35,533 nucleotides of DNA. It comes from Candidatus Woesearchaeota archaeon. GTDB taxonomy: Archaea > Nanobdellota > Nanobdellia > Pacearchaeales > GW2011-AR1. A program made the translations under genes and the position numbers. The number at the start of each line of letters is the position of its first letter. The first letter of the stretch is position 1. Under the pieces are notes generated by a model that worked only from the letters and a program-made list of their open reading frames with translations, was not told the DNA's origin and did not search any database. The DNA lies in assembly GCA_964502865.1 (NCBI GenBank), contig CAZCXX010000002.1:1-35533 (forward strand), given 5' to 3'. Of this stretch, positions 235 to 35,414 are shown piece by piece.

Positions 235-1389
235 TTATGTCTCTAAGTTTTCCTTTACTAGTGTCTTAACCCATTTTTTTATAATGACCATCTCAGATTC
301 CAAGCATTTTACTTTTTCATTTAAAATCTCTTTCTCATTATCTGATTTTTCGAGTCTTTTCTCTATTTCTGCTTTTGTGATATCTATCAATAAATCTTCC
401 TCTGTTATTGTATCTCTCATGCCTAACAACTCTGAGTAATAGTGAATTTTATCTGAGCTTTTCCAGCCAAACCGATATTTTAAGGCACTTTCGCTCTTAT
501 ATCGTGGCATCCAGTAGCAGCATGAACAATGGCGAAAATCATACATTGTGAGTTCTGAATATTTCTGACCTGCTGGACTTTCTTTCTCACCGAATATTTT
601 TCTTGCTAGTCTTTTGAGATATCTATTTACAACCGCAGGGTTTATCTTGAAAAGGTAATCATCTAAAGAAATCTTTTTATTTGTTACATATTGCTTTATG
701 AGTTCTGGGCAGAGCATGAGTTTAATTCTTCTTCCAAAGGTTTTGCTTATCTCTTCTCGAATATTCACTTCTTTGAAATCACTATGAAAATCTGAAACTT
801 TAATGTTCATTAATTCTGTTGGAGCTCGTATCCCTGAATCGAATAAGAACATAATAAGCACTTTATACTCGTATTTTACATTATCATAGACTTTCTTAAT
901 GTCGCTTTCAGTTAAATACACCCAGTCTGGCTTTTCTTCTCTTGAATCTAAATCCCTTGTAATATCAACTACTTCTATTTTCTTTTTTCGATTAATCTTT
1001 TCATACCAATGCCAAAAAGACCTAAAGATTTTAATATAATCTGAGACAGATTTATACCTCTTGCCATCGGGTCTCTTAATTGTTCCATTCATCATGGAAT
1101 TAAATAAAGAATGTATTTTCTCTTCAGTTAAATCTGAGATTTTATCGAGGTTATAGAGTGCTTTAATCTTTTTTATGATAAATATCATCCTATCTTTTAA
1201 TGAAATAAGACGAGTAAAGCTTCTCGCACCTTTTTTTGAACCAACTCCTATATTAACGCCTATTTCCATATCGTTAAGATATTGCATGAGGATATTCTTA
1301 TTGAACTCTCCAATTTCAGGAATGCCTCTGCTAGCCATTTCTTTCCATTTTACATAGACTTTTTCGCTATTGTAGGGATCTATCTTCAT
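235..1389 (-). CDS. Tyrosine recombinase / phage-type integrase
   Basis: ORF 235..1449. The C-terminal catalytic region carries DSGIRAPTEL (Arg), FRHCSCCYW (His-x-x-Arg-like) and a KIHYY Tyr region. I prefer the start at internal MKIDPYN (ATG 1387-1389) because a TATA-like TTTATAAG lies about 22 nt upstream. The gene lies directly beside the 3' end of tRNA-Glu. Confidence 0.8.
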   Translation of the reverse strand: MKIDPYNSEKVYVKWKEMASRGIPEIGEFNKNILMQYLNDMEIGVNIGVGSKKGARSFTRLISLKDRMIFIIKKIKALYNLDKISDLTEEKIHSLFNSMMNGTIKRPDGKRYKSVSDYIKIFRSFWHWYEKINRKKKIEVVDITRDLDSREEKPDWVYLTESDIKKVYDNVKYEYKVLIMFLFDSGIRAPTELMNIKVSDFHSDFKEVNIREEISKTFGRRIKLMLCPELIKQYVTNKKISLDDYLFKINPAVVNRYLKRLARKIFGEKESPAGQKYSELTMYDFRHCSCCYWMPRYKSESALKYRFGWKSSDKIHYYSELLGMRDTITEEDLLIDITKAEIEKRLEKSDNEKEILNEKVKCLESEMVIIKKWVKTLVKENLET

Positions 1390-1467
1390 TTGTATCTTAT
1401 GCTTGTTATTCTTATAAATAACAGGTATCTTTTGGGTACATCCCTGCAAAATGCCAGAATGGTAAAC

Positions 1468-1687
1468 TGCCCCTGCCGGGATTTGAACCCGGGTTTAGGC
1501 CGTTCTCCATCGCCTCAAGACACCTCAAATCTTGCGATTCTCGGCGCGCGTGAGAACCAGTGGTTCTCGACATGAGGCGCTGGTTAAAATCAGTGCCTGT
1601 CTGTGAGCAGACTGAAGTTGTTATCTCATCGACTGCAACTTCGGCTATACGAGAGGGCCTCGTCCTTGACCTCTAGACTACAAGGGC
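1468..1687 (-). tRNA. tRNA-Glu(CUC) interrupted by a 147-nt intron at canonical position 37/38 (intron = 1503..1649)
   Basis: Read on the minus strand. Acceptor GCCCTTG/CAGGGGC (one G-U pair), D stem GTCT/GGAC, anticodon stem AGGCC/GGCCT, loop CTCTCG|intron|C, T arm CCGGG-TTCAAAT-CCCGG, discriminator A. A BHB-like fold is possible: CTCT pairs GGAG, with 3-nt bulges CG|T and AA|C. A TATA box lies about 25 nt upstream. Confidence 0.75.
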
Positions 1688-1711
1688 AATGAAAGGATGG
1701 AGAGGTGAAGG

Positions 1712-1719
1712 TTTAAAAG
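1712..1719 (-). promoter_or_regulatory. TATA-like box for tRNA-Glu
   Basis: The minus strand reads CTTTTAAA about 25 nt upstream of the tRNA 5' end at 1687. Confidence 0.5.
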
Positions 1720-1737
1720 CTATTTGGTAATCAGAAA

Positions 1738-3362: not shown

Positions 3363-5003
3363 TCAACGATCTTCCAGTTTCTTCAGCAAAGGTTCCAGTG
3401 AAATTTCCAAGACACAACCGGGCAGTTTCAGAGCATATGACCGGAGGGTTTCTGGATGGAGTTCACCGAAGTAACCAATTTCTTGATTGTTAATAAGAAT
3501 TATCGCGGTACGACCGTCAATACATCTTTTTTGCACACTTTCTATCAACGCATATTGCAGGGAAAGAGCCGAGCATAACGAATCAAGGATCTGTTTCATC
3601 TGAGTAAAATTACCGGGCATGAGTGTGATTGAGAGCTTAAGTGGTTCAGCGATGCCTGTTTCGGGTATTCTTTTGTCTTTCTTAAAGACACGACCTATTT
3701 CGAAGAAGTTTTGCGGGTATTCATTATCCTTGTTTTCTGCGAGAATGCGAAGTGCAGGCGTTATCAGATCGGGTCGGAGGGCTTTATATTCGGTTTTCGC
3801 GTTTTCAAGCTCAACCCGCTCATGTTCCGGAATAATTTTTGCTTCTTCATTGGTAATCAGATGATACGTTGCAATTTCAAGCAAACCAAGACCAACCAGC
3901 GTTTCTGATGTGAGTGTTCTTATGCTGCTTTCAACTGACTCTTCTGCGATGGTTGCTGCAAGTGCAGGCAATTGAGGGACGAGACGATCGTATCCATAAG
4001 CGATGGCGATATCTTCAATAATATCTACTTCGTGCATGACATCAGTGCGCCATGCAGGGATTGAAACGAGGTGGTTTTTGTACCCATATCCCATCCGAGG
4101 AAGGAGTTTTTCAAGGTCTCTCTCTTTGAGATCAAGGCCAAGATATCTATTTACTGCTTCCAACGAAAGTTTCTTTTTCTGGGGAGTAAGGTCTGGAGTT
4201 GTCAGTTTCTTTCCATTTGCTTGTATACAGGTAAGCGGGTAGATTGTTCCCCCCATTTCGGCTAGCATTGTTGCCATAATCGCAAGGACTTGCTCTAAGG
4301 TTTTTATGTTTGTTCCTGTTACTTCAACAAATACTTCTTTTGTTGCTTCATCTACTTTTCCGAGATCGTGAGAATTAATAATCGGCGGCATCGACATGAT
4401 TTCTTTTTTTGCGTCAATGAATAGAGGAAATGCCGACCATTCGGCACAGATATGGGCATATTCGCGACCGGTAGGATGGTCTGTCAATATTTGCCTTCCC
4501 GAAATTACTTTTGGATGCTCCAAAGGTCTGAATTTAATCTTATCCGGGTGCATGCCGATAAATCGAACAGGGAAATGAATTTTCTCAAGCGGGTAAACTC
4601 CAATGCCTCCTTTTTTTCGTTTGCGCAATAGCGTGCTTCCTAATTTTTCTTGAATATTCATAATTTCACGAATTCTTTCGTCAGTTAGCGATAATCCCTT
4701 TACGACACAAGCAACTGCGTAGGGCCATTCTTTAGGAACTGTCTTCTCCACAATAACTCGGTCTTTTGTTTGTTTGACTGTGTACTTAGGTAATCCGCTC
4801 TCTTTTCCGAGATATGCCCGGATAGCTCGCATAAACCCTGATAATGAAAGGAGATCTGGACGGTTGGGAAGTACTTGGAGCTCAAGCTCATTTTCAGTCA
4901 GGCGCTCTACTGGGACACCGAACATCATTATCTTGTCGAGTACTTCAGGAGTTAGTTTTATTTCTTTTTCAATTTCTGCGCGTGCGAATGTTACATTTGC
5001 CAT
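3363..5003 (-). CDS. pheT: Phenylalanine--tRNA ligase beta subunit (archaeal type)
   Basis: ORF 3363..5063. The length and layout fit archaeal PheT. I prefer the start at MANVTFARAEIEKEI (ATG 5001-5003), one nt after the pheS stop, which implies an operon with pheS. Confidence 0.9.
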   Translation of the reverse strand: MANVTFARAEIEKEIKLTPEVLDKIMMFGVPVERLTENELELQVLPNRPDLLSLSGFMRAIRAYLGKESGLPKYTVKQTKDRVIVEKTVPKEWPYAVACVVKGLSLTDERIREIMNIQEKLGSTLLRKRKKGGIGVYPLEKIHFPVRFIGMHPDKIKFRPLEHPKVISGRQILTDHPTGREYAHICAEWSAFPLFIDAKKEIMSMPPIINSHDLGKVDEATKEVFVEVTGTNIKTLEQVLAIMATMLAEMGGTIYPLTCIQANGKKLTTPDLTPQKKKLSLEAVNRYLGLDLKERDLEKLLPRMGYGYKNHLVSIPAWRTDVMHEVDIIEDIAIAYGYDRLVPQLPALAATIAEESVESSIRTLTSETLVGLGLLEIATYHLITNEEAKIIPEHERVELENAKTEYKALRPDLITPALRILAENKDNEYPQNFFEIGRVFKKDKRIPETGIAEPLKLSITLMPGNFTQMKQILDSLCSALSLQYALIESVQKRCIDGRTAIILINNQEIGYFGELHPETLRSYALKLPGCVLEISLEPLLKKLEDR

Positions 5004-5004
5004 T

Positions 5005-6552
5005 TTATTTCTTCCAGAGCGGCTTTGTGCGAAGCGCTCGTACGTCGTTTTGATAGACTTCACGCAAGTCTTTAATTTTGTAATATTCCATGATGATGCG
5101 CTCGAATCCTTGTCCCCACGCGAGTACGCGGACGTCTGGCCCCAGTAAGGTGGTCGTTATTTCCGGTCTAAACATGCCTGCACCTCCGAGTTCAATCCAT
5201 ATCTTTTTTTCTGGGTGGAATATGTGCACCTCGACCGAAGGCTCGGTGTAGGGAAAGAAACTTGGCACGCACTTGATTTGGCCGTATCCCATCTTCTTAT
5301 AGAATGCTTTAAGGTATCCAAGCAGATGTTGTAGCGTTACTTCTTTGCTTACGACAATGCCTTCTGTTTGGTAGAATTCAAATAAATGGCTCCAATCGAG
5401 CGTTTCATTTCTGAATACTTTTCCAATGGCAAAATATTTTGCAGGGAGCTGATTTATTTTGAGTTCGGCAAGCGTTCGTGCAGAGAGACCTGTTGTGTGT
5501 GTTCTGAGTACCAGCTTTGTTGCTTCGCGCTCTTGCCAGGGAGAGTGCCACCCGGTACTTCCCGCAACTCCTTCTTCATGGCTTTCTTTCACGCGCTTTA
5601 CCAGTGCCGCAGGTGGTAGCGTCCCTTGTGCGTTTTTAATAAAAAAAGTATCTTGCATTTCACGCGCGGGATGATCTTGCGGGGTAAAGAGCGCATCGAA
5701 GACCCAGAAGGAAGTATCTACCAGCGGACCGGACATTTCAATAAAACCGAGATCGAGCCAGATGCGGCGGGCATATTCGACCGTATGAGTGACGAAGTTT
5801 TTCTTTCCTCCTGAGCGATGTGGTACTTGAGCATGAATGTCATATTTACGAAAACGCTTTCCTTTACTCCATGTTTTTATGATTTCTGGAGTGACTTCTT
5901 CAATAAGGTCAATGTCAATCTTCTGCCCGGCAAGCGTTTTTCCGAGCTGTGTGAGTAAGATCACTACTTTTCTTTCTTCGCGGAACTCAATAATCTCTTT
6001 TCTCTTTTTAAGACTTTCAACAGCATGCAATAGTTCTGGAGGGAGAGATTCAAGTGGACGGGGAAGCATTTCCAAGAGTTGTTCTTCAAATGATTTTTTA
6101 ATAAGATCATCCTTTGATGCGGTGAGCGAGATTTTTCCATTTGTAAGTGAGATAAGCGCTTTTCCTTTTAAGACTCCGAGTGATACTTTAAACTCATTGT
6201 CTGAAAGCTTTGCTTGCTTTTGCGCTTCCTGGAGCAAACGGTGGTTCTTTTCTTCCAATGCAAGAAGAAGTGCACGCTCGGGAAGGTGATTTTTCTTATA
6301 GTAAATACCGTTCGTGCTCAGATCCACAATGGTCTTTCTTTCTATTTCGACTTTAAGGATTGCTTTATTTTCCAAGAATCTAAGCCCGCGCAAGAGGGAA
6401 ACATCATCAAGACCTGACTTTTCCTTGATTTCTCCGTAAGGGAACTTTAGAAAGGAGATAATTTTACGTTCTAACGGAGAGAGTTTATCAATTATTTCTA
6501 TTACAGGTTCGAGATGTGCAGGTACCGCACCATTTTTTTGAGAGGAGGACAT
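5005..6552 (-). CDS. pheS: Phenylalanine--tRNA ligase alpha subunit (archaeal/eukaryotic type with long N-terminal extension)
   Basis: The 515-aa protein has a class II catalytic core (HPAREMQDTFF, LRTHTT, FRNE, GAGM...GFERI) preceded by about 250 aa of helical or winged-helix-like sequence. Confidence 0.9.
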   Translation of the reverse strand: MSSSQKNGAVPAHLEPVIEIIDKLSPLERKIISFLKFPYGEIKEKSGLDDVSLLRGLRFLENKAILKVEIERKTIVDLSTNGIYYKKNHLPERALLLALEEKNHRLLQEAQKQAKLSDNEFKVSLGVLKGKALISLTNGKISLTASKDDLIKKSFEEQLLEMLPRPLESLPPELLHAVESLKKRKEIIEFREERKVVILLTQLGKTLAGQKIDIDLIEEVTPEIIKTWSKGKRFRKYDIHAQVPHRSGGKKNFVTHTVEYARRIWLDLGFIEMSGPLVDTSFWVFDALFTPQDHPAREMQDTFFIKNAQGTLPPAALVKRVKESHEEGVAGSTGWHSPWQEREATKLVLRTHTTGLSARTLAELKINQLPAKYFAIGKVFRNETLDWSHLFEFYQTEGIVVSKEVTLQHLLGYLKAFYKKMGYGQIKCVPSFFPYTEPSVEVHIFHPEKKIWIELGGAGMFRPEITTTLLGPDVRVLAWGQGFERIIMEYYKIKDLREVYQNDVRALRTKPLWKK

Positions 6553-6573: not shown

Positions 6574-6581
6574 CTTAAAAA
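6574..6581 (-). promoter_or_regulatory. TATA-like box for pheS-pheT
   Basis: The minus strand reads TTTTTAAG about 22 nt upstream of the pheS ATG (6550-6552). No Shine-Dalgarno sequence is present, so the transcript is probably leaderless. Confidence 0.5.
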
Positions 6582-6582
6582 G

Positions 6583-6770
6583 CTATAGGAAATCGCTTTA
6601 ATAATCGTAATTTCTAACGCGATTTCCTATCTATCAAACAACACAACCACTACGAAAATTAATGTTGTTTGATATAGAGGACTTTGAAAAACCCCAAAGT
6701 CCTCTATCGAACCGCTTTGAAAACCCTCGAAGGACATCGAAATTGGAGGGTTATTCAAAGCTCTCTATAG
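6583..6770 (+). repeat. Hairpin-repeat family B, copy 1 (four consecutive TAG...CTA-footed hairpins)
   Basis: CTATAG-GAAATCGC[22 nt]GCGATTTC-CTATC; TATCAAACAACA[19 nt]TGTTGTTTGATA; TAGAGGACTTT[10 nt]AAAGTCCTCTA; CTTTGAAAACCCTC[17 nt]GAGGGTTATTCAAAG-CTCTCTATAG. The first two hairpins recur at 13258..13350. Confidence 0.85.
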
Positions 6771-9716: not shown

Positions 9717-9906
9717 CTATAGTGGAAGACCTAAGTCCTTCCCCTAATAGCAGACGACACATCAAGAATTATCGAGGCTTCAATTCTTGACTGCGCTCAA
9801 GGACTTCGAGAATATGCTTATTCTCGACAGTGATCAAGAATTGGTAAATTCTTGACATTAGCAAATCCTTGACGGAACGGGGAGAAACTTATGTCGTCTG
9901 CTATAG
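9717..9906 (+). repeat. Hairpin-repeat family A, copy 1 (longest, doubly nested)
   Basis: CTATAGTGGAAGACCTAAGTCCTTCCCCTAATAGCAGACGACA...[internal hairpin modules]...GGGGAGAAACTTATGTCGTCTGCTATAG. The ends match the copies at 18230, 23895 and 29681. Confidence 0.9.
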
Positions 9907-9914
9907 CGTATTTT

Positions 9915-11615
9915 TTAGATCAAACCTGCTTTGTGATGATTTTTAAGAAGTGATTTAACATGATGGACATCATCTATTTCATACGCAAAGTGATGTCCTA
10001 CTTTTGAGCCATGGCGGCGAGGTTTGTATTCAATCCAATATTTTTCAGGAGCAATTACCTGGGGAACGGGTAACACGAGGACCGGCTTTTTCTTTAGACT
10101 TTGAACTGGCGAGGTATTTGGATTTGGCGCAGCGCTCTGGGCAAGGGCTTCTGCTTCTTGTGCAACTTGTTCTTCCGCTATCTCGGCTTGCAATGCAATT
10201 TCCTCTTCAGTTGGTTTTGGTGGATGTATTTTTTCCCAGGTGGCGCTCGCAGTTTCCTTTACAGATTCATAATATTCTCGAGGATGGATCTTAGGAATAT
10301 GGTCAGTTACAGTATGTACATACTCACTTACTGGAAATTCCGAGATGTTCTCTTTTATGCGCTCATAATAGAGCAGAGGGTGAAATTTTGGAAGATGGAG
10401 TGCACGTCGGAGACGGGACGCACTGATCTGTGGATGAGGGAGATGGACTGACTTGATGTGCACGTCAGGGAGTTTAAGTTGCGGCAGATTTACATTTACA
10501 TCAGGCAATCGTAGTACGGGCAATTTTTCAATTAAATTATTTTTTTTTATGATACGAGCGCTTTTGTAAATCCTGTTCTTTAGGGCGGCGGTGGGAATCG
10601 TGTTTTTGATTCTATTGATAAGAGTGGAGAGCTTAATGCGAGGTCCATGGTTATCGTGAATGTTTATATGGGGAAGGGCAACTTTGGGAAGTTCCAAGTG
10701 ATGTAAGTGCACTGTGGAAAGCGAGAGGTGCTTTACATTGATTGGTGAGACCATCACACTCGAGAATTCCGGAAGTTTCAGTTCAGGCCAGTGTATTTGA
10801 GGGAGATGATGTACAGCATGTGGTGACGACGTTTCTTTTGAGAGAAGCAGTTGTCTCGCAGGTTTATTCGGCAGTTGAACACGTGTAAATACTTTAGTTG
10901 GGCGGATATTCTTGAGCTTATCGATAACCGATCGGACTTTATTTCTAAAGTTTTTCAGGTCTATCGTCGGAATATGGAACATGGGCTGAGTGGATGGCGG
11001 CAGTTGTGGGCTAACAGACATTAGTTTGTCAGCAAGTGCTTCCTGTTTCTGAATTGCTTTGGGATTTCTTTGTAATCGAAGTGCTTCTTTTTCCGCACGT
11101 TTTCGTGCTACATCTTCGATTATAAGTTTTTTGAAGTCAATTAGCAACTCGTGCATTTGTAGATCTTCGAGGGGTTTTCCTGAGTACGCGTATTCAATCA
11201 CTTTTTTCAGGATATTTGATGCAGAAGTCTGTTCTTTTTTTTCAAGTTGCAGTATCATCTCTGCGTAGGGTAATCTTTTCCCGACCTTGTATTCTTTAGA
11301 GAAATATTTACGAACTATGATGTCCATAACGTATAGTTTGTTAACCGCATCATCTTTACTAGAAATAAGCTGATTCAGTTCATCGATTAATTCGAGTTTT
11401 GGCGGTGGACCTTGGGCAAGTGTTGTTACCAGCCTTTCTTGTGGGGCAGGTTCTTTCTTAAAAAAACGGATGATTGTGGGAAATGGATTTAATGAATGTT
11501 CTTCCTGAACCGCCCCAGGAGTAATTTCTAATGCCTCAGGTTTTTTACTTTTTTTTAATTCGTGCTTTGCTTTAGCATGAGTAGCGTGCGACGCACGAAC
11601 CCTCTTTTTTTTCAT
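9915..11615 (-). CDS. Hypothetical protein with internal short LP-rich repeats
   Basis: ORF 9915..11672. I prefer the start at MKKKRVRAS (ATG 11613-11615), with TTTTTATAC about 20 nt upstream. It has a basic N-terminus and repeated (K/R)LP(D/E)(V/F)-type motifs (LRLPDVNVNLPQLKLPDVHIKSVHLP; LKLPEF...LELPKVALP). No known family. Confidence 0.6.
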   Translation of the reverse strand: MKKKRVRASHATHAKAKHELKKSKKPEALEITPGAVQEEHSLNPFPTIIRFFKKEPAPQERLVTTLAQGPPPKLELIDELNQLISSKDDAVNKLYVMDIIVRKYFSKEYKVGKRLPYAEMILQLEKKEQTSASNILKKVIEYAYSGKPLEDLQMHELLIDFKKLIIEDVARKRAEKEALRLQRNPKAIQKQEALADKLMSVSPQLPPSTQPMFHIPTIDLKNFRNKVRSVIDKLKNIRPTKVFTRVQLPNKPARQLLLSKETSSPHAVHHLPQIHWPELKLPEFSSVMVSPINVKHLSLSTVHLHHLELPKVALPHINIHDNHGPRIKLSTLINRIKNTIPTAALKNRIYKSARIIKKNNLIEKLPVLRLPDVNVNLPQLKLPDVHIKSVHLPHPQISASRLRRALHLPKFHPLLYYERIKENISEFPVSEYVHTVTDHIPKIHPREYYESVKETASATWEKIHPPKPTEEEIALQAEIAEEQVAQEAEALAQSAAPNPNTSPVQSLKKKPVLVLPVPQVIAPEKYWIEYKPRRHGSKVGHHFAYEIDDVHHVKSLLKNHHKAGLI

Positions 11616-11680
11616 AGGTGAAGGAGGGCACGCATGTATAAAAACATATCGAGGAGGTGTGTTGTCCCGCACTTAACCCT

Positions 11681-11924
11681 AAAGAAATCCTCTATCTTTA
11701 GATAGGGGTTTAATTTTGTAGAGGATTTCTTTGGTCTCACAAAACCACAAACAAACCTCGGCTTTTAAGCCGAGGTTAAAACCCGAAGGGTTTTGTGATA
11801 ACCGCAAGGCTGAGAGAAATTCCTGCCACGAGTATAGAGAACTGCGTAGGATAGATTACATTTTGTACGCATTTCTCTAATAGATAACTGCAGAACCATG
11901 TCATGCATCCCATGCAGTTATCTA
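11681..11924. repeat. Cluster of four TAG...CTA-type hairpins (unique stems)
   Basis: AAAGAAATCCTCTA/TAGAGGATTTCTTT; CACAAAACC/GGTTTTGTG enclosing CCTCGGCTT-TTAA-AGCCGAGG; TAGAGAA(C)TGCGTA/TACGCATTTCTCTA; TAGATAACTGCA/TGCAGTTATCTA. The junctions read TATAG, CTAATAG and CTATAA. Confidence 0.8.
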
Positions 11925-11949
11925 TAACGAAAGATCTTTACATAGATTT

Positions 11950-13159: not shown

Positions 13160-13244
13160 GGATCTGTAGTTTCAATGGTAAAATGTTCGGCTCCAGAAGT
13201 TGTGGAGCAACCGAAAGTCGAGGGTTCGATTCCCTCCAGGTCCA
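13160..13244 (+). tRNA. tRNA-Trp(CCA) with a 13-nt intron (about 13197..13209)
   Basis: GGATCTG TA GTTT CAATGGTA AAAT G TTCGG CTCCAG[AAGTTGTGGAGCA]A CCGAA AGTC GAGGG TTCGATT CCCTC CAGGTCC A. The intron TGGAG pairs with the anticodon-loop CTCCA, as in BHB substrates. Confidence 0.85.
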
Positions 13245-13257
13245 TGCCATTTGCATT

Positions 13258-13444
13258 TATAGGAAATCACTTTAATAATCGTAATATTCTAACGTGATTT
13301 CCTATCTAGCAAACAACAAAAAAGCTACGAAAATTAATGTTGTTTGCTATAAGGAGAATTATAGGAAAAGAAATTAATTTTCGTATCTTTCTTTTCCTAT
13401 CTATCGAGTGAAAAACTTCCGAAAACTTATTTCCCTCGATATAG
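13258..13444 (+). repeat. Hairpin-repeat family B, copy 2
   Basis: TATAGGAAATCAC[22 nt]GTGATTTCCTATC; TAGCAAACAACA[19 nt]TGTTGTTTGCTA; ATAGGAAAAGAAA[14 nt]TTTCTTTTCCTAT; TATCGAG-TGAAA...ATTTC-CCTCGATATAG. It starts 13 nt after tRNA-Trp. Confidence 0.85.
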
Positions 13445-13515
13445 ATAGCCAGCCGCAGCAAGCTGCTGAGTATTGGACTCAAAATGGAATAAAAACAAAA
13501 AATTAATCTACGTCT

Positions 13516-13966: not shown

Positions 13967-14026
13967 GTTTGAGCAATAAAGAATCCCAATCGCAGCAAGC
14001 TGCAGGGTATTCTTTAAGCCTCAAAC
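13967..14026 (+). repeat. Repeat family D copy (nested hairpin around CGCAGCAAGCTGC)
   Basis: GTTTGAG-CAA-TAAAGAAT-CCCAAT-CGCAGCAAGCTGC-AGGG-TATTCTTTA-AGC-CTCAAAC. The core also occurs at 13454-13466 and 18363-18375. Confidence 0.7.
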
Positions 14027-18229: not shown

Positions 18230-18304
18230 CTATAGTGGAAGATCTAAGTCCTTCCCCTAATAGCAGACGACAAACTGGGGAGAAACTAATGTCGTCTGCT
18301 ATAT
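18230..18304 (+). repeat. Hairpin-repeat family A, copy 2 (short form)
   Basis: CTATAGTGGAAGATCTAAGTCCTTCCCCTAATAGCAGACGACA-AACTGGGGAGAAACTAA-TGTCGTCTGCTATA. It starts 2 nt after the helicase stop. Confidence 0.9.
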
Positions 18305-18348
18305 TCAAGGGGCGCAGTGAATCGATACTGAGAAAGGCTTTTCTCTAA

Positions 18349-18413
18349 TAAAGAATCCCAGTCGCAGCAAGCTGCGGAGTATGGACTCAGTTTGAGCAAT
18401 CGAGTAAAGAATA
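18349..18413 (+). repeat. Repeat family D copy
   Basis: TAAAGAATCCCAGTCGCAGCAAGCTGCGGAGTATGGACTCAGTTTGAGCAATCGAGTAAAGAAT. It shares segments, in permuted order, with 13967..14026, and shares the core plus GAGTAT(T)GGACTCA with 13454..13481. Confidence 0.7.
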
Positions 18414-23894: not shown

Positions 23895-23968
23895 TATAGT
23901 GGAAGACCTAAGTCCTTCCCCTAATAGCATACGACAAAACGAGGAAAAACTAATGTCGTATGCTATAG
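23895..23968 (+). repeat. Hairpin-repeat family A, copy 3 (short form, compensated stem)
   Basis: TATAGTGGAAGACCTAAGTCCTTCCCCTAATAGCATACGACA-AAACGAGGAAAAACTAA-TGTCGTATGCTATAG. It overlaps the last codons and stop of the antiporter gene. Confidence 0.9.
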
Positions 23969-26744: not shown

Positions 26745-26916
26745 TTTCATCAGTCTTAGTATCTTCGCTTTCCTCAGCTCAGATGAAGGATTAACCTGCG
26801 AATGGTTGTTTTTCACTCGCTACATTCTTAAATACTCATTGTTTCTCTCTTTTTTATGAATGAGGTGACTCCTTTGCAGGATATAGAGAATTTCATTGAA
26901 AATGGGGCTATAAGTC

Positions 26917-27423
26917 ATGAAATTCTCTAATGGACAATTGCCGAAAACAGAGGACATAAGTAATGCAATTGTCCATATTTATTTTGCTGCGTCGATTCGT
27001 GGCGGACGCGAAGATATATCCGTCTATACTTCATTGATCACTCATTTGAGCAAGTACGCGCGAGTTTTAACTGAGCATGTAGGCAATCGAAATCTTGCAG
27101 CTTGGGGAGAAGATGGTCTAACTGACGAAGAAATTTACCAGCGAGACATGGGTTGGCTTGCATCTGCAAGGGCGGTGGTTGCTGAAGTTTCAAATCCTTC
27201 GCTTGGAGTGGGTTATGAGGTATGCGCGGGTTCGCTTATTTATCATCTTCCAACGCTCTGCCTTTATCGGAAACAAGAAGGCAAGCGTCTCTCTGCGATG
27301 ATTGCCGGTGCCCCCGGATTAATTGTTGCTCCATACGAGTCATTAGATGATGCACGGGCACTTCTTGATCAGTATGTTCCTCAATTGCTGGGGCTTCCGC
27401 GGAGACATCATGAAACTTCGTGA
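26917..27423 (+). CDS. 2'-deoxynucleoside 5'-phosphate N-hydrolase (DNPH1/Rcl-like, nucleoside 2-deoxyribosyltransferase fold)
   Basis: IYFAASIRGGRED, VLTEHV, VVAEVSNPSLGVGYE and LSAMIAG closely track human DNPH1 motifs (YFCGSIRGGRED, VLTEHV, VVAEVTQPSLGVGYE, LSAMIRG). Confidence 0.8.
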   Translation: MKFSNGQLPKTEDISNAIVHIYFAASIRGGREDISVYTSLITHLSKYARVLTEHVGNRNLAAWGEDGLTDEEIYQRDMGWLASARAVVAEVSNPSLGVGYEVCAGSLIYHLPTLCLYRKQEGKRLSAMIAGAPGLIVAPYESLDDARALLDQYVPQLLGLPRRHHETS

Positions 27424-29020: not shown

Positions 29021-29710
29021 ATGGAGCGAGGCAGTGTGAAAAAAGGGCTTTTTATTGTCTTTGAAGGCATTGACGGCAGTGGAAAAACATCGCAGATTGA
29101 ACGTCTTGCACGATACATTCGCGCTCAGGATAAATATCGAGATGTTCTTTTGACACGGGAGCCTACTTGGCGTGCAACTGAATTACTTGAACAACTTCAA
29201 GGTAATGCAGACGCTTTTTCGAACGGTGAGCGCATGGCGTATCAATTTGTTTGGGATCGGAAAGCTCATACCGACGCACAGATTAAACCTGCCTTAGAGC
29301 AACGTGCGTTTGTTCTGTGTGATCGGTATGCGATGTCTACTTGTGCGTATCAAGCTGCGCAAGGTGTACTGCTTGATACTTTACTCCGCTACCATGAAGA
29401 GGCTCAAACACTTACTCCCCATATTACATTTTTTGTCGATGTCCCTCGTGAGGTAGCTGAAGCACGGATGATCAAACGAGGAGCTGCTCCTGAAAAGTTT
29501 GAGAAAAATGCAACGTTTACTGATTTACTTATTAAGCATTATCGTTTACTTGCAGAAAAAAGTCTTACAGATGAACGGTTACGCAGAGTTATCGGTCCTG
29601 TGGTGAGCATTGATGGAATGCCCTCTCTGGATCAAGTTGGTGAGCAAATTCAAGTTGCTTATGGTCAAGCGATGCGTGCTTATAGTGGAAGACCTAAGTC
29701 CTTCCCCTAA
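29021..29710 (+). CDS. tmk: Thymidylate kinase
   Basis: The P-loop FIVFEGIDGSGKTSQ and DRY motif (CDRYAMST) are present. The start is MERGS at 29021, 2 nt after the thyA stop. The last 9 codons and the stop lie inside repeat A4. Confidence 0.9.
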   Translation: MERGSVKKGLFIVFEGIDGSGKTSQIERLARYIRAQDKYRDVLLTREPTWRATELLEQLQGNADAFSNGERMAYQFVWDRKAHTDAQIKPALEQRAFVLCDRYAMSTCAYQAAQGVLLDTLLRYHEEAQTLTPHITFFVDVPREVAEARMIKRGAAPEKFEKNATFTDLLIKHYRLLAEKSLTDERLRRVIGPVVSIDGMPSLDQVGEQIQVAYGQAMRAYSGRPKSFP

Positions 29711-29816
29711 TAGCAGATGACACATCAAGAATTATTGAGGCTTCAATTCTTGACTGCGCTCAAGGATTAGCAAATCCTTGACGGAACGGGGAGAAACTTA
29801 TGTCGTCTGCTATAGT
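29681..29816 (+). repeat. Hairpin-repeat family A, copy 4 (intermediate form)
   Basis: TATAGTGGAAGACCTAAGTCCTTCCCCTAATAGCAGATGACA-[TCAAGAATT..AATTCTTGA; TCAAGGA..TCCTTGA]-GGGGAGAAACTTATGTCGTCTGCTATAG. Confidence 0.9.
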
Positions 29817-35316: not shown

Positions 35317-35414
35317 TTTGGCGGAGTACTCCGCCAAACATCGAGAATCCTGTGTTTTTGATTCTCGAGTGTGCTCAAGAATCTCAAAATAGACGAGAAG
35401 ATTCTTGACATTAG
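35317..35414 (+). repeat. Hairpin modules including family C (TCGAGAAT..ATTCTCGA-N6-TCAAGAAT..ATTCTTGA-CATTAG)
   Basis: TTTGGCGGAG-TA-CTCCGCCAAA (35317-35338); TCGAGAAT[12]ATTCTCGA (35341-35368); TCAAGAAT[18]ATTCTTGA (35375-35408); CATTAG. The same two-stem module sits nested inside repeat A1 at 9806-9861. Confidence 0.8.

Follow-up and report, generated by a model that had tools for sequence, protein, structure and literature searches.

The stretch of DNA examined here, called the window throughout, consists of the first 35,533 nucleotides (nt) of contig CAZCXX010000002.1 (assembly GCA_964502865.1, Candidatus Woesearchaeota archaeon), and it carries two copies, B1 and B2, of a repeat built from two adjacent hairpins that we call family B. 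Genes annotated in the window with Pfam, NCBIfam and PHROGs include those for RNase P p30, archaeal-type PheRS alpha and beta, SerRS, thymidylate synthase and further housekeeping functions. The closest named matches of PheRS are from Pace-, Woese- and Nanoarchaeota, that is, from DPANN archaea. Because RNase P p30 and an archaeal PheRS with these matches are present, and because the same repeats occur in the metagenome-assembled genome (MAG) CAZKON01, we conclude from gene content that the host is a Woesearchaeota-like DPANN archaeon. B1 is located between the 3' end of the p30 gene and the pheS promoter. The likely TATA box of pheS, at 6574..6582 (CTTTTTAAG on the minus strand), borders directly on the end of B1 and precedes the ATG at 6552 by approximately 30 nt. 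B2 begins 14 nt 3' of the gene for tRNA-Leu(CAG) (13160..13244, plus strand), which lies directly upstream. The repeats described below belong to a family of miniature DNA elements that have a double-hairpin structure, are found in DPANN archaea and appear to be mobile.

Double-hairpin units in the window

Both copies of family B are on the plus strand. B1 (6584..6676; 117.7 bits) comprises hairpin H1 at 6585-6630, with a stem of 12 bp and a loop of 22 nt, and hairpin H2 at 6632-6674, with a stem of 12 bp and a loop of 19 nt; B2 (13258..13351; 114 bits) comprises H1 at 13259-13305 (loop 23 nt) and H2 at 13307-13349 (loop 19 nt). The 12-bp H1 stems are ATAGGAAATCGC/GCGATTTCCTAT in B1 and ATAGGAAATCAC/GTGATTTCCTAT in B2, and the 12-bp H2 stems are TATCAAACAACA/TGTTGTTTGATA in B1 and TAGCAAACAACA/TGTTGTTTGCTA in B2. 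As stated in the original prediction, which was made from this DNA alone, one pair per hairpin is changed on both sides (G:C vs. A:T in one, T:A vs. G:C in the other), and the stems show no other difference. Its account of the loops has to be amended: the H1 loops, described as differing by a T/A substitution, actually differ by a 1-nt insertion or deletion (AAT-TTC vs. AATATTC), and the H2 loops, described as almost identical, differ at 5 of 19 positions.

The extents of the two copies, which had been drawn to 6770 and 13444, also change. The first 93 nt are homologous (6584-6676 vs. 13258-13351), but the 3' halves are unrelated, with 6672-6770 belonging to a different family, E, and 13358-13444 to another, H5H6. 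E and H5H6 are each found without B at other loci. The "B1" noted earlier is B plus E and the "B2" is B plus H5H6. The family-E unit (6672..6770, plus strand) contains H3 (6674-6707) and the imperfect H4 (6714-6761), is not homologous to the 3' half of the former "B2", and is found without B at loci L020, L008 and L024 (loci from other assemblies are designated by L numbers). The H5H6 unit (13358..13444, plus strand) contains H5 (13361-13400) and H6 (13402-13441, with one T·C mismatch) and is the closest paralogue of B, scoring 57 bits on the plus strand and 40 on the minus strand with the B model; a second copy is present in L016 at 3635-3720 on the minus strand.

The complementarity that had been noticed between the H2 loop of B2 and the loop of the next hairpin is borne out and covers 13 nt (TACGAAAATTAAT/ATTAATTTTCGTA). 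The loops of first hairpins (H1, H5) are reverse complements of the loops of second hairpins (H2, H6), with z = 3.2 for H1/H2 and 5.0-6.3 for H2/H5; therefore, any H2 that lies beside an H5 shows loop-loop complementarity. One position of the H2 loop varies together with the H5-loop base opposite it (window 13326-13385), the two being A/T in the window and G/C in L016 (3680-3719 and 4709-4755), where the units with G/C loops lie 1 kb apart. With two genomes only, this observation is an anecdote.

Family B is part of a larger repertoire. Nearly all of the long hairpins in the window have stems that start with (T)ATAG and end with CTAT(A), have loops of 8-24 nt, and occur in pairs. The repeat unit is a double hairpin of 75-100 nt bounded by YTATAG...CTATAR, and there are at least six families. 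The foot TATAG/ATAG is common to families A, B, E, F, G and H5H6, and their stem sequences are otherwise entirely different. A covariance model built from B also matches H5H6, at 57-60 bits, and families G and A with lower scores, and one orientation always scores better, so the families share polarity as well as architecture. The window holds four copies of A, two of B, two of F, and one each of E and H5H6, and all repeats together account for 3.8% of it. Seven of the eight copies of the palindromic hexamer CTATAG in the window are ends of hairpin units, which leaves a single one elsewhere (13934), compared to approximately six expected. Readings of the units as CRISPR, tandem repeats or coding sequence were rejected, as was an assembly artefact, given that the same units are found in ENA, Logan, GTDB and JGI assemblies. 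Contigs of the same strain from other assemblies (L001, L028) stop inside repeats, at window positions 9855 and 23921; the elements fragment metagenome assemblies.

Dispersal and orientation of the units

Further copies of family B were recovered in two ways. A search of a genome collection with a 20-mer from family A gave four loci, all from MAG CAZKON01 ("Ca. Woesearchaeota archaeon"), and these loci also hold two B copies, one with a small hairpin doublet of the class described below in the right arm of H1 (L006) and one truncated in the loop (L005). A metagenome search with the H1 loop gave 16 matches, comprising seven true B loci and nine chance or coding matches; a second copy in L008 was found by inspection, which brings the JGI metagenome contigs to eight copies and the family to 12 (two in the window, two in CAZKON01 and eight in JGI contigs). 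No flanking open reading frame (ORF) is common to any two of the 12 copies, and the genes beside them are ordinary (GlyRS, FtsY, ATPases, tRNA-Ser). The seven full copies have a mean column identity of 94%, and the two copies in L008 share a loop variant. The units are therefore dispersed in unrelated gene contexts across several genomes and metagenomes.

They are also absent from the orthologous spacer of relatives. The comparison of orthologous loci suggested in the original prediction could be made at the p30-pheS spacer, which holds B plus E in the window and lacks this array in the closer relatives L003 and L002. In L003, with PheRS 72% identical, the spacer is 46 nt long and empty, and L002, with PheRS 77% identical, has no array at this place and retains the promoter sequence GCTTTTTAAGC found upstream of pheS. 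A 67% relative (L024-26) carries E alone in the spacer, inverted relative to the genes and with two class-II doublets inside. The order of modules varies as well: the window has E on the right side of B, and L017 has it on the left. Read on the minus strand, the junctions in the window are CAC-TA-(array)-TA-GCTTTTTAAGC, and L002 has exactly CACTAGCTTTTTAAGC, a 16-mer that gives a hint of insertion at TA. TA flanks all units on both sides, where a target duplication is indistinguishable from the foot of the stem, and L002 adds one putative empty site. At its other end the array reaches into a gene: the final four codons and stop (YREL*) of the p30 gene, on the minus strand, lie within the last 16 nt of E (6755-6770), and the p30 proteins of relatives end seven residues earlier than that of the window.

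A class of smaller hairpins, class II, is found both free-standing and nested in the larger units. Class-II hairpins are 21-22 nt long and follow the pattern TCRRGRAYY-N3-4-RRTYCYYGA, which has 35 perfect copies and 15 distinct stems across 144 kb, compared to 0 expected. They are arranged in doublets of approximately 53-62 nt with 6-nt linkers and TCAAG...CTTGA feet, and they occur in the window at 9760-9875, 29723-29784 and 35341-35408 and also in L002, L004-L008, L012, L016, L017, L020, L021 and L024, one of which (L002, the 77% relative) is without family B. Units of B, A and E serve as hosts for nested insertions into loops or arms, with no obvious target duplication and no TA. The insertion boundaries are exact, namely GTGAT[53 nt]TTTCC in H1 of B and ACA[62 or 116 nt]AACGGGG in the loop of the second hairpin of A, and a 53-nt doublet occupies the identical point of the H1 right arm of B in L006, L017 and L021. 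Blastn against phage and plasmid collections gave no match to the repeats, and patterns for B, A, E and class II had 0 matches among IMG/VR viral contigs; thus, there is no sign of a viral vector.

Units on one contig tend to point the same way regardless of the strand of the neighboring genes. All eight unit clusters in the window are on the plus strand, with flanking genes in the arrangements -/- (four), +/+ (two) and mixed (two); the four clusters of L008 are on the plus strand, and all of those in L017 are on the minus strand. Within contigs, 14 of 15 comparisons between clusters agree in orientation (P ~5e-4, families mixed). Four loci have both |GC skew| > 0.05 and units that all point one way, and in each of these the sign of the skew matches orientation. 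Relative to genes, the start of nearly all units is 0-60 nt downstream of a stop codon or of the 3' end of a tRNA.

Stem pairing and the other hairpin families

The hairpins greatly exceed chance. The window contains 13 perfect hairpins with a stem of at least 12 bp, compared to 0.09 in dinucleotide shuffles, and the fold z-scores of the units are -6.4 to -10.9 as RNA and approximately -9 as single-stranded DNA (ssDNA), with both strands alike. If the stems of B1 and B2 had changed at the rate of their loops (d = 0.12), one would expect 5.5 pairs to be mismatched, whereas no mismatch is present (P = 0.002), and 0.12 pairs to be exactly compensated, whereas two are (P = 0.007). In H2, which was not used to retrieve copies, 3 of 12 pairs are changed on both sides, with a covariation score of 0.148 compared to 0.077 in shuffled alignments (reached in 0/500); slid controls gave 0. 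Across the seven full copies, 4 of the 24 pairs of B are changed on both sides (score 0.111 vs. 0.052 shuffled, reached in 0/500; no such pair in slid controls). Extending the analysis to 12 curated hairpin sets gave 13 compensated and 14 uncompensated classes of change, and when the same 40 base changes were placed at random in a neutral simulation, the mean was 1.6 compensated pairs and the maximum was 8 in 20,000 runs (P < 5e-5). Uncompensated mismatches at the neutral rate in a larger set of copies had been named in advance as the outcome that would speak against maintenance of the hairpin; this larger set has 13 compensated classes compared to 1.6 expected. Covariation is far above neutral, and the proposal that the hairpin itself is maintained therefore stands. 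The clearest case is the second hairpin of family F, with four versions (ATAGATAACTGC, ATGGATAACTGC, ATACATCACTGC and ATGGACAATTGC) that are all perfectly paired.

The stems are maintained, though not automatically, since decayed copies exist: L005 is truncated, and L021 has a deletion in an arm. Mismatched intermediates are also visible. Position 5 of H2 is G:C in four copies, A·C in two (L006, L012), G·T in L017 as well as L021, and A:T in both window copies, and one copy in L008 (L008a) has T·C where B1 has T:A. CpG deamination could be the source of the change from G:C to A:T at position 5 of H2 and cannot explain the remaining 12 compensated changes. Stems change more slowly than loops in families A and F, which fits constraint on the stems. 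The original prediction had left selection and a fold-back process that symmetrizes the arms as the two possible causes, and our data cannot separate them. The mismatched intermediates argue against obligatory symmetrization, and the fact that H2 stems change about as fast as the H2 loop hints at some arm-to-arm correction.

Among the RNA, ssDNA and cruciform forms that the hairpin could take, DNA is favored. The 702 stem cells examined include 672 Watson-Crick pairs, 5 G·T and 3 A·C, so that G·T is as rare as A·C. An RNA role is disfavored because G·U pairs would be tolerated, on the strand of the RNA, if selection acted on an RNA. Orientation that follows the contig and not the gene strand points in the same direction, and the ability of both strands to fold equally well as ssDNA is counted for DNA rather than RNA. 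Consistent with this, a search of Rfam at the gathering threshold and at E <= 1 matched only tRNAs, with no family for the units.

Family A is represented in the window by four units on the plus strand. The unit at 18231..18304 is uninterrupted and begins 2 nt after the stop codon of a helicase gene, and the second hairpin of the unit at 23895..23968 differs from the copy at 18260 by one compensated pair (G:C to T:A). The other two are interrupted: that at 9718..9906 has a 116-nt block of class-II hairpins (9760-9875) inside the loop of its second hairpin, and that at 29681..29815 has a 62-nt class-II doublet (29723-29784) in the loop and one uncompensated C-to-T change in the left arm, giving a T·G pair. 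The first hairpin of family A (TAGTGGAAG/CTTCCCCTA) retains a T·C mismatch in eight of eight copies (window 9718-9744, 18231-18257, 23895-23921 and 29681-29707; L004-L007), and this constant mismatch may be a recognition feature. Family F is present at 11833..11929 (plus strand), with a diverged paralogue at 26882..26978 (plus strand) in which both stems are still perfect; a flip-flop inversion of the loop between these paralogues is unsupported (z = 1.4). The free-standing class-II doublet at 35341..35408 (plus strand) consists of TCGAGAATC...GATTCTCGA and TCAAGAATCT...AGATTCTTGA.

Several features outside these families were also observed. A conserved core sequence, CGCAGCAAGCTGCGGAGTAT, itself a small hairpin, is found in the window at 13445-13473, 13975-14016 and 18347-18382, and in L005 (73-125) and L016 (5099-5154), where it occupies the loops of larger hairpins with mutually unrelated stems. 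Additional hairpin types, namely AAAGAAATCCTCTA...TAGAGGATTTCTTT, the terminator-like AACCTCGGCTT..AAGCCGAGGTT, and, in relatives, AACTTTCAAA...TTTGAAAGTT, are located at 11679-11798 in the window, 1261-1306 and 2769-2813 in L002, and 7670-7711 in L016. The ORF at 9915-11672 (minus strand, 585 aa), which has hairpin arrays on both sides, is repetitive, rich in Pro, Lys and Leu, and without a match in Pfam, NCBIfam or PHROGs. A non-coding segment at 1466-1728 (minus strand) is 86-91% identical to L003 6818-7027, compared to only about 70% identity for proteins, and its minus strand ends in a tRNA-like T-arm and acceptor (CCGGGTTCAAATCCCGGCAGGGGCA). It is probably an intron-containing tRNA or other structured RNA that was not called by ARAGORN or Rfam.

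Origin of the elements and comparison with known systems

We consider it probable that family B is a 93-nt non-autonomous mobile element of two adjacent stem-loops and one of at least six such families in a Woesearchaeota-like DPANN lineage, so that the object being maintained is a dispersed, apparently mobile element and not a structure tied to one locus. The dispersal of the units, their absence from the orthologous spacer of relatives, their variable order, the nested insertions, the Watson-Crick stems kept by many compensated substitutions, and the co-orientation of units regardless of gene strand were all observed directly. One competing explanation is that the units are structured RNAs with a function for the host, as 3'-end stabilizers, terminators or small RNAs, and that their dispersal is secondary. 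Their placement after stop codons and tRNA 3' ends suits this proposal, as bacterial REPs, to which a role as RNA elements is ascribed, are similarly placed (PMC3733652); in addition, the predicted RNA folds are very stable, and stems that are perfect palindromes would fold in a transcript of either strand. We nevertheless regard this as rather improbable, because no Rfam family matches, G·U is found no more often than A·C, co-orientation along contigs is independent of the gene strand, units are absent or inverted at the orthologous spacer in relatives, nested insertions would disrupt an RNA function, and the 5' flanks all differ, leaving no conserved external promoter. Host sites for a DNA-binding protein, or cruciforms with a role in chromatin, partition or attC-like integron recombination, would account for the palindromic architecture and conserved foot, and co-orientation and position after gene ends recall attC sites; a gene for a divergent tyrosine integrase is even present at 235-1449 (minus strand). 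Yet the stem interiors vary too freely for a sequence-specific site, the motifs and cassette array of an integron are missing, the neighbors are housekeeping genes that lie on either strand, and the units are absent from the orthologous spacers of relatives, all of which makes this explanation highly improbable.

A different proposal dispenses with selection: inert palindromes would be kept perfect by intramolecular template switching or fold-back mismatch correction, such that a mutation in one arm is reverted or copied across to the other. The H2 stems are as variable as the loop (7 of 24 vs. 6 of 19 columns), which is faster than two-step compensation should allow; 4 of the 13 compensated changes are transversion pairs without a wobble intermediate; and Watson-Crick pairing on both strands is what such a process would leave. 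Against it stand the 14 uncompensated classes of mismatch, the occurrence of both intermediates at one pair (A·C in L006 and L012, G·T in L017 and L021), the conservation of two mismatches (the T·C of the first hairpin of A in 8/8 copies and a closing A·A of H2 in 7/9), and stems that are clearly slower than loops in families A and F. It also leaves dispersal, nesting and co-orientation unexplained. As a complete account it is unlikely, and a copying process at the DNA level more probably plays a part than explains everything. Mobility itself could alternatively be of the cut-and-paste kind, with the units as miniature inverted-repeat transposable elements (MITEs) of the IS630/Tc1-mariner type that enter TA sites as double-stranded DNA and duplicate the TA, the hairpins being a by-product of inverted repeats. 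Each unit does read YTA|TAG...CTA|TAR, with inferred targets TTAA, TTAG, CTAG and CTAA, the inferred empty site CAC-TA-GCTTTTTAAGC is the 16-mer present in L002, and seven of the eight CTATAG hexamers in the window are unit ends. We find this alternative quite unlikely, since the inverted repeat of the whole unit is only about 5-6 bp and the conserved pairing is internal to the single hairpins; the foot is all that at least six otherwise unrelated stem sequences have in common, a poor fit to terminal repeats bound by sequence; insertion of double-stranded DNA would not be expected to produce co-orientation; class-II insertions show no TA; and neither the window nor approximately 190 kb of DNA from the other loci revealed a DDE transposase.

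Several observations weigh against the mobile-element interpretation of family B. No transposase or HUH/Y1 gene was found in the same DNA using Pfam, NCBIfam and PHROGs on 40 ORFs. There is no filled and empty site pair for B itself among the loci compared, and the 16-nt match in L002, CACTAGCTTTTTAAGC, is the sole "empty site" and extends only 3 nt beyond the conserved promoter. The strain-level contigs L001, L027 and L028, found by exact-protein look-ups, gave identical sequence only and no insertion polymorphism. B copies were retrieved by means of the H1 loop, and conservation of that loop consequently carries no evidential weight; 8 of the 12 copies come from JGI hosts of uncertain relatedness. 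The test of orientation that gave 14/15 mixes families, and same-family comparisons alone give 7/8 (P ~0.035). A link to replication is suggested by GC skew in four short loci. Finally, hairpin arms were curated by eye in small samples.

The search for an enzyme also covered the genes of known related systems. TnpA and TnpB were not found in the window or the approximately 190 kb of loci, and neither was a RAYT gene, in a search that did not extend to whole genomes; an IS200 TnpA probe of unverified sequence revealed no Y1 gene. The only candidate was the integrase ORF at 235-1449 (PHROG integrase E = 1.4e-16; XerA/IntI-like models far below cut-off), which has no Pfam or PDB sequence match, and it was set aside as mobilizer because nothing ties it to the hairpins. 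The left end of the window, where this ORF is located, has a low GC content (33%), and the ORF could be a marker of an integrated element.

If family B is a mobile element, its stems would be needed in cis, most likely as ssDNA hairpins exposed at the replication fork, where a structure-specific enzyme acting in trans would recognize them. Copies with a broken stem would stop spreading and those that regain pairing would found new copies, so that propagation would be the main filter, with only folded copies spreading; arm-to-arm mismatch correction in the folded strand may speed compensation. B1 and B2 would descend from one master copy specific to the lineage, because three derived H2 states (A:T at position 5, C:G at 8 and A:T at 12) are common to both. 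More tentatively, these could represent the first REPIN-like system in Archaea, a possibility that we think doubtful: families of double hairpins moved as folded ssDNA by an enzyme not recognized as a transposase, spreading horizontally among DPANN, with stems kept partly by arm correction and a functional contact between the complementary loops of first and second hairpins (A:T in the window, G:C in L016) joining the ends.

DPANN genomes are small and streamlined and are usually thought to be poor in mobile DNA, yet nearly 4% of a 35-kb housekeeping stretch consists of hairpin repeats. Their visible effects include a rewritten C-terminus of RNase P p30, direct contact with promoters and tRNA genes, and broken metagenome assemblies. 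If the units are mobilized as ssDNA, they point to an unrecognized structure-specific transposition system in archaea. They also provide a natural data set for how stems stay paired, by selection or arm-to-arm correction, and could be of practical use as strain markers for uncultured Woesearchaeota. We found nothing in the literature on such repeats in DPANN archaea.

Of the systems known elsewhere, the closest functional analogues are the REP (repetitive extragenic palindromic), BIME (bacterial interspersed mosaic element) and REPIN sequences of bacteria, which are mobilized by RAYT (TnpA-REP), and the miniature elements derived from IS200/IS605, although membership in either group is not established. 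Like REP, BIME and REPIN sequences, the units are short extragenic palindromes present in many copies, mostly downstream of genes, in doublets and clusters, and several families can coexist in one genome (PMC3116915, PMC6006769, PMC3733652); compensatory changes are common in bacterial REPINs (PMC3116915). The REP foot is GT[AG]G and the foot here is TATAG, both of 4-5 nt and ending in TAG, and "double-foot" forms exist. In contrast to REPs, the loops here are 14-25 nt long and the host is an archaeon, and class-2 TnpA-REP proteins are listed for bacteria only (PMC6006769). A REPIN would form one long hairpin, which the near reverse complementarity of the H1 and H2 loops (z = 3.2) recalls, yet the minimum-energy fold here is two separate hairpins side by side.

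A likeness to integron attC sites lies in recognition of a folded single strand, structure taking precedence over sequence, co-orientation, and location at gene 3' ends. Identity with attC is excluded, as there are no R''/R' cores (RYYYAAC...GTTRRRY), no extrahelical bases and no cassette array, and the stems are perfect. Rfam RNA families are likewise excluded, only tRNAs having matched. TA-duplicating MITEs of the IS630/Tc1-mariner type are similar in being approximately 100 nt long, TA-flanked, intergenic and foldable; unlike in those elements, only TTATAG/CTATAA (about 5-6 bp) is shared across the whole unit here, and each hairpin covaries internally. Such MITEs, for example pneumococcal RUP and the Correia elements of Neisseria, rely on conserved terminal inverted repeats of at least 20 bp. 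Small mobile units of one or two hairpins in the intergenic DNA of compact genomes, with compensated changes and no known enzyme, are also found in mitochondria, for example the double-hairpin elements (DHEs) of Allomyces. Other mitochondrial examples are the repetitive hairpin elements (RHEs) of sponges (PMC2800124) and the GC clusters of yeast (PMC4478555). These elements are organellar and unrelated in sequence, and we regard them as convergent analogues with no common ancestry implied. The class-II hairpins nested in B, A and E resemble the small dispersed repeats (SDRs) of heterocystous cyanobacteria, which Elhai et al. in 2008 reportedly described as hairpin repeats of approximately 21-27 nt inserted inside other repeats; SDRs are bacterial and differ in sequence and architecture. 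The miniature elements of IS200/IS605, which are moved by a Y1 HUH transposase, are comparable to the units described here in having a hairpin near each end, structure-dependent recognition and no long terminal inverted repeats, the complementarity across the whole unit being about 5-6 bp in our case. They differ in that the hairpins of our units are perfect and reach the very ends. Elements of that type insert 3' of a fixed 4-5-nt target without duplication; here YTA precedes every unit and TA also follows it, with no defined target tetranucleotide. The IS200/IS605 family is present in archaea and transposes as ssDNA with strand-specific insertion coupled to replication (PMC6006769), and insertion of this type would explain the co-orientation of the double-hairpin units.

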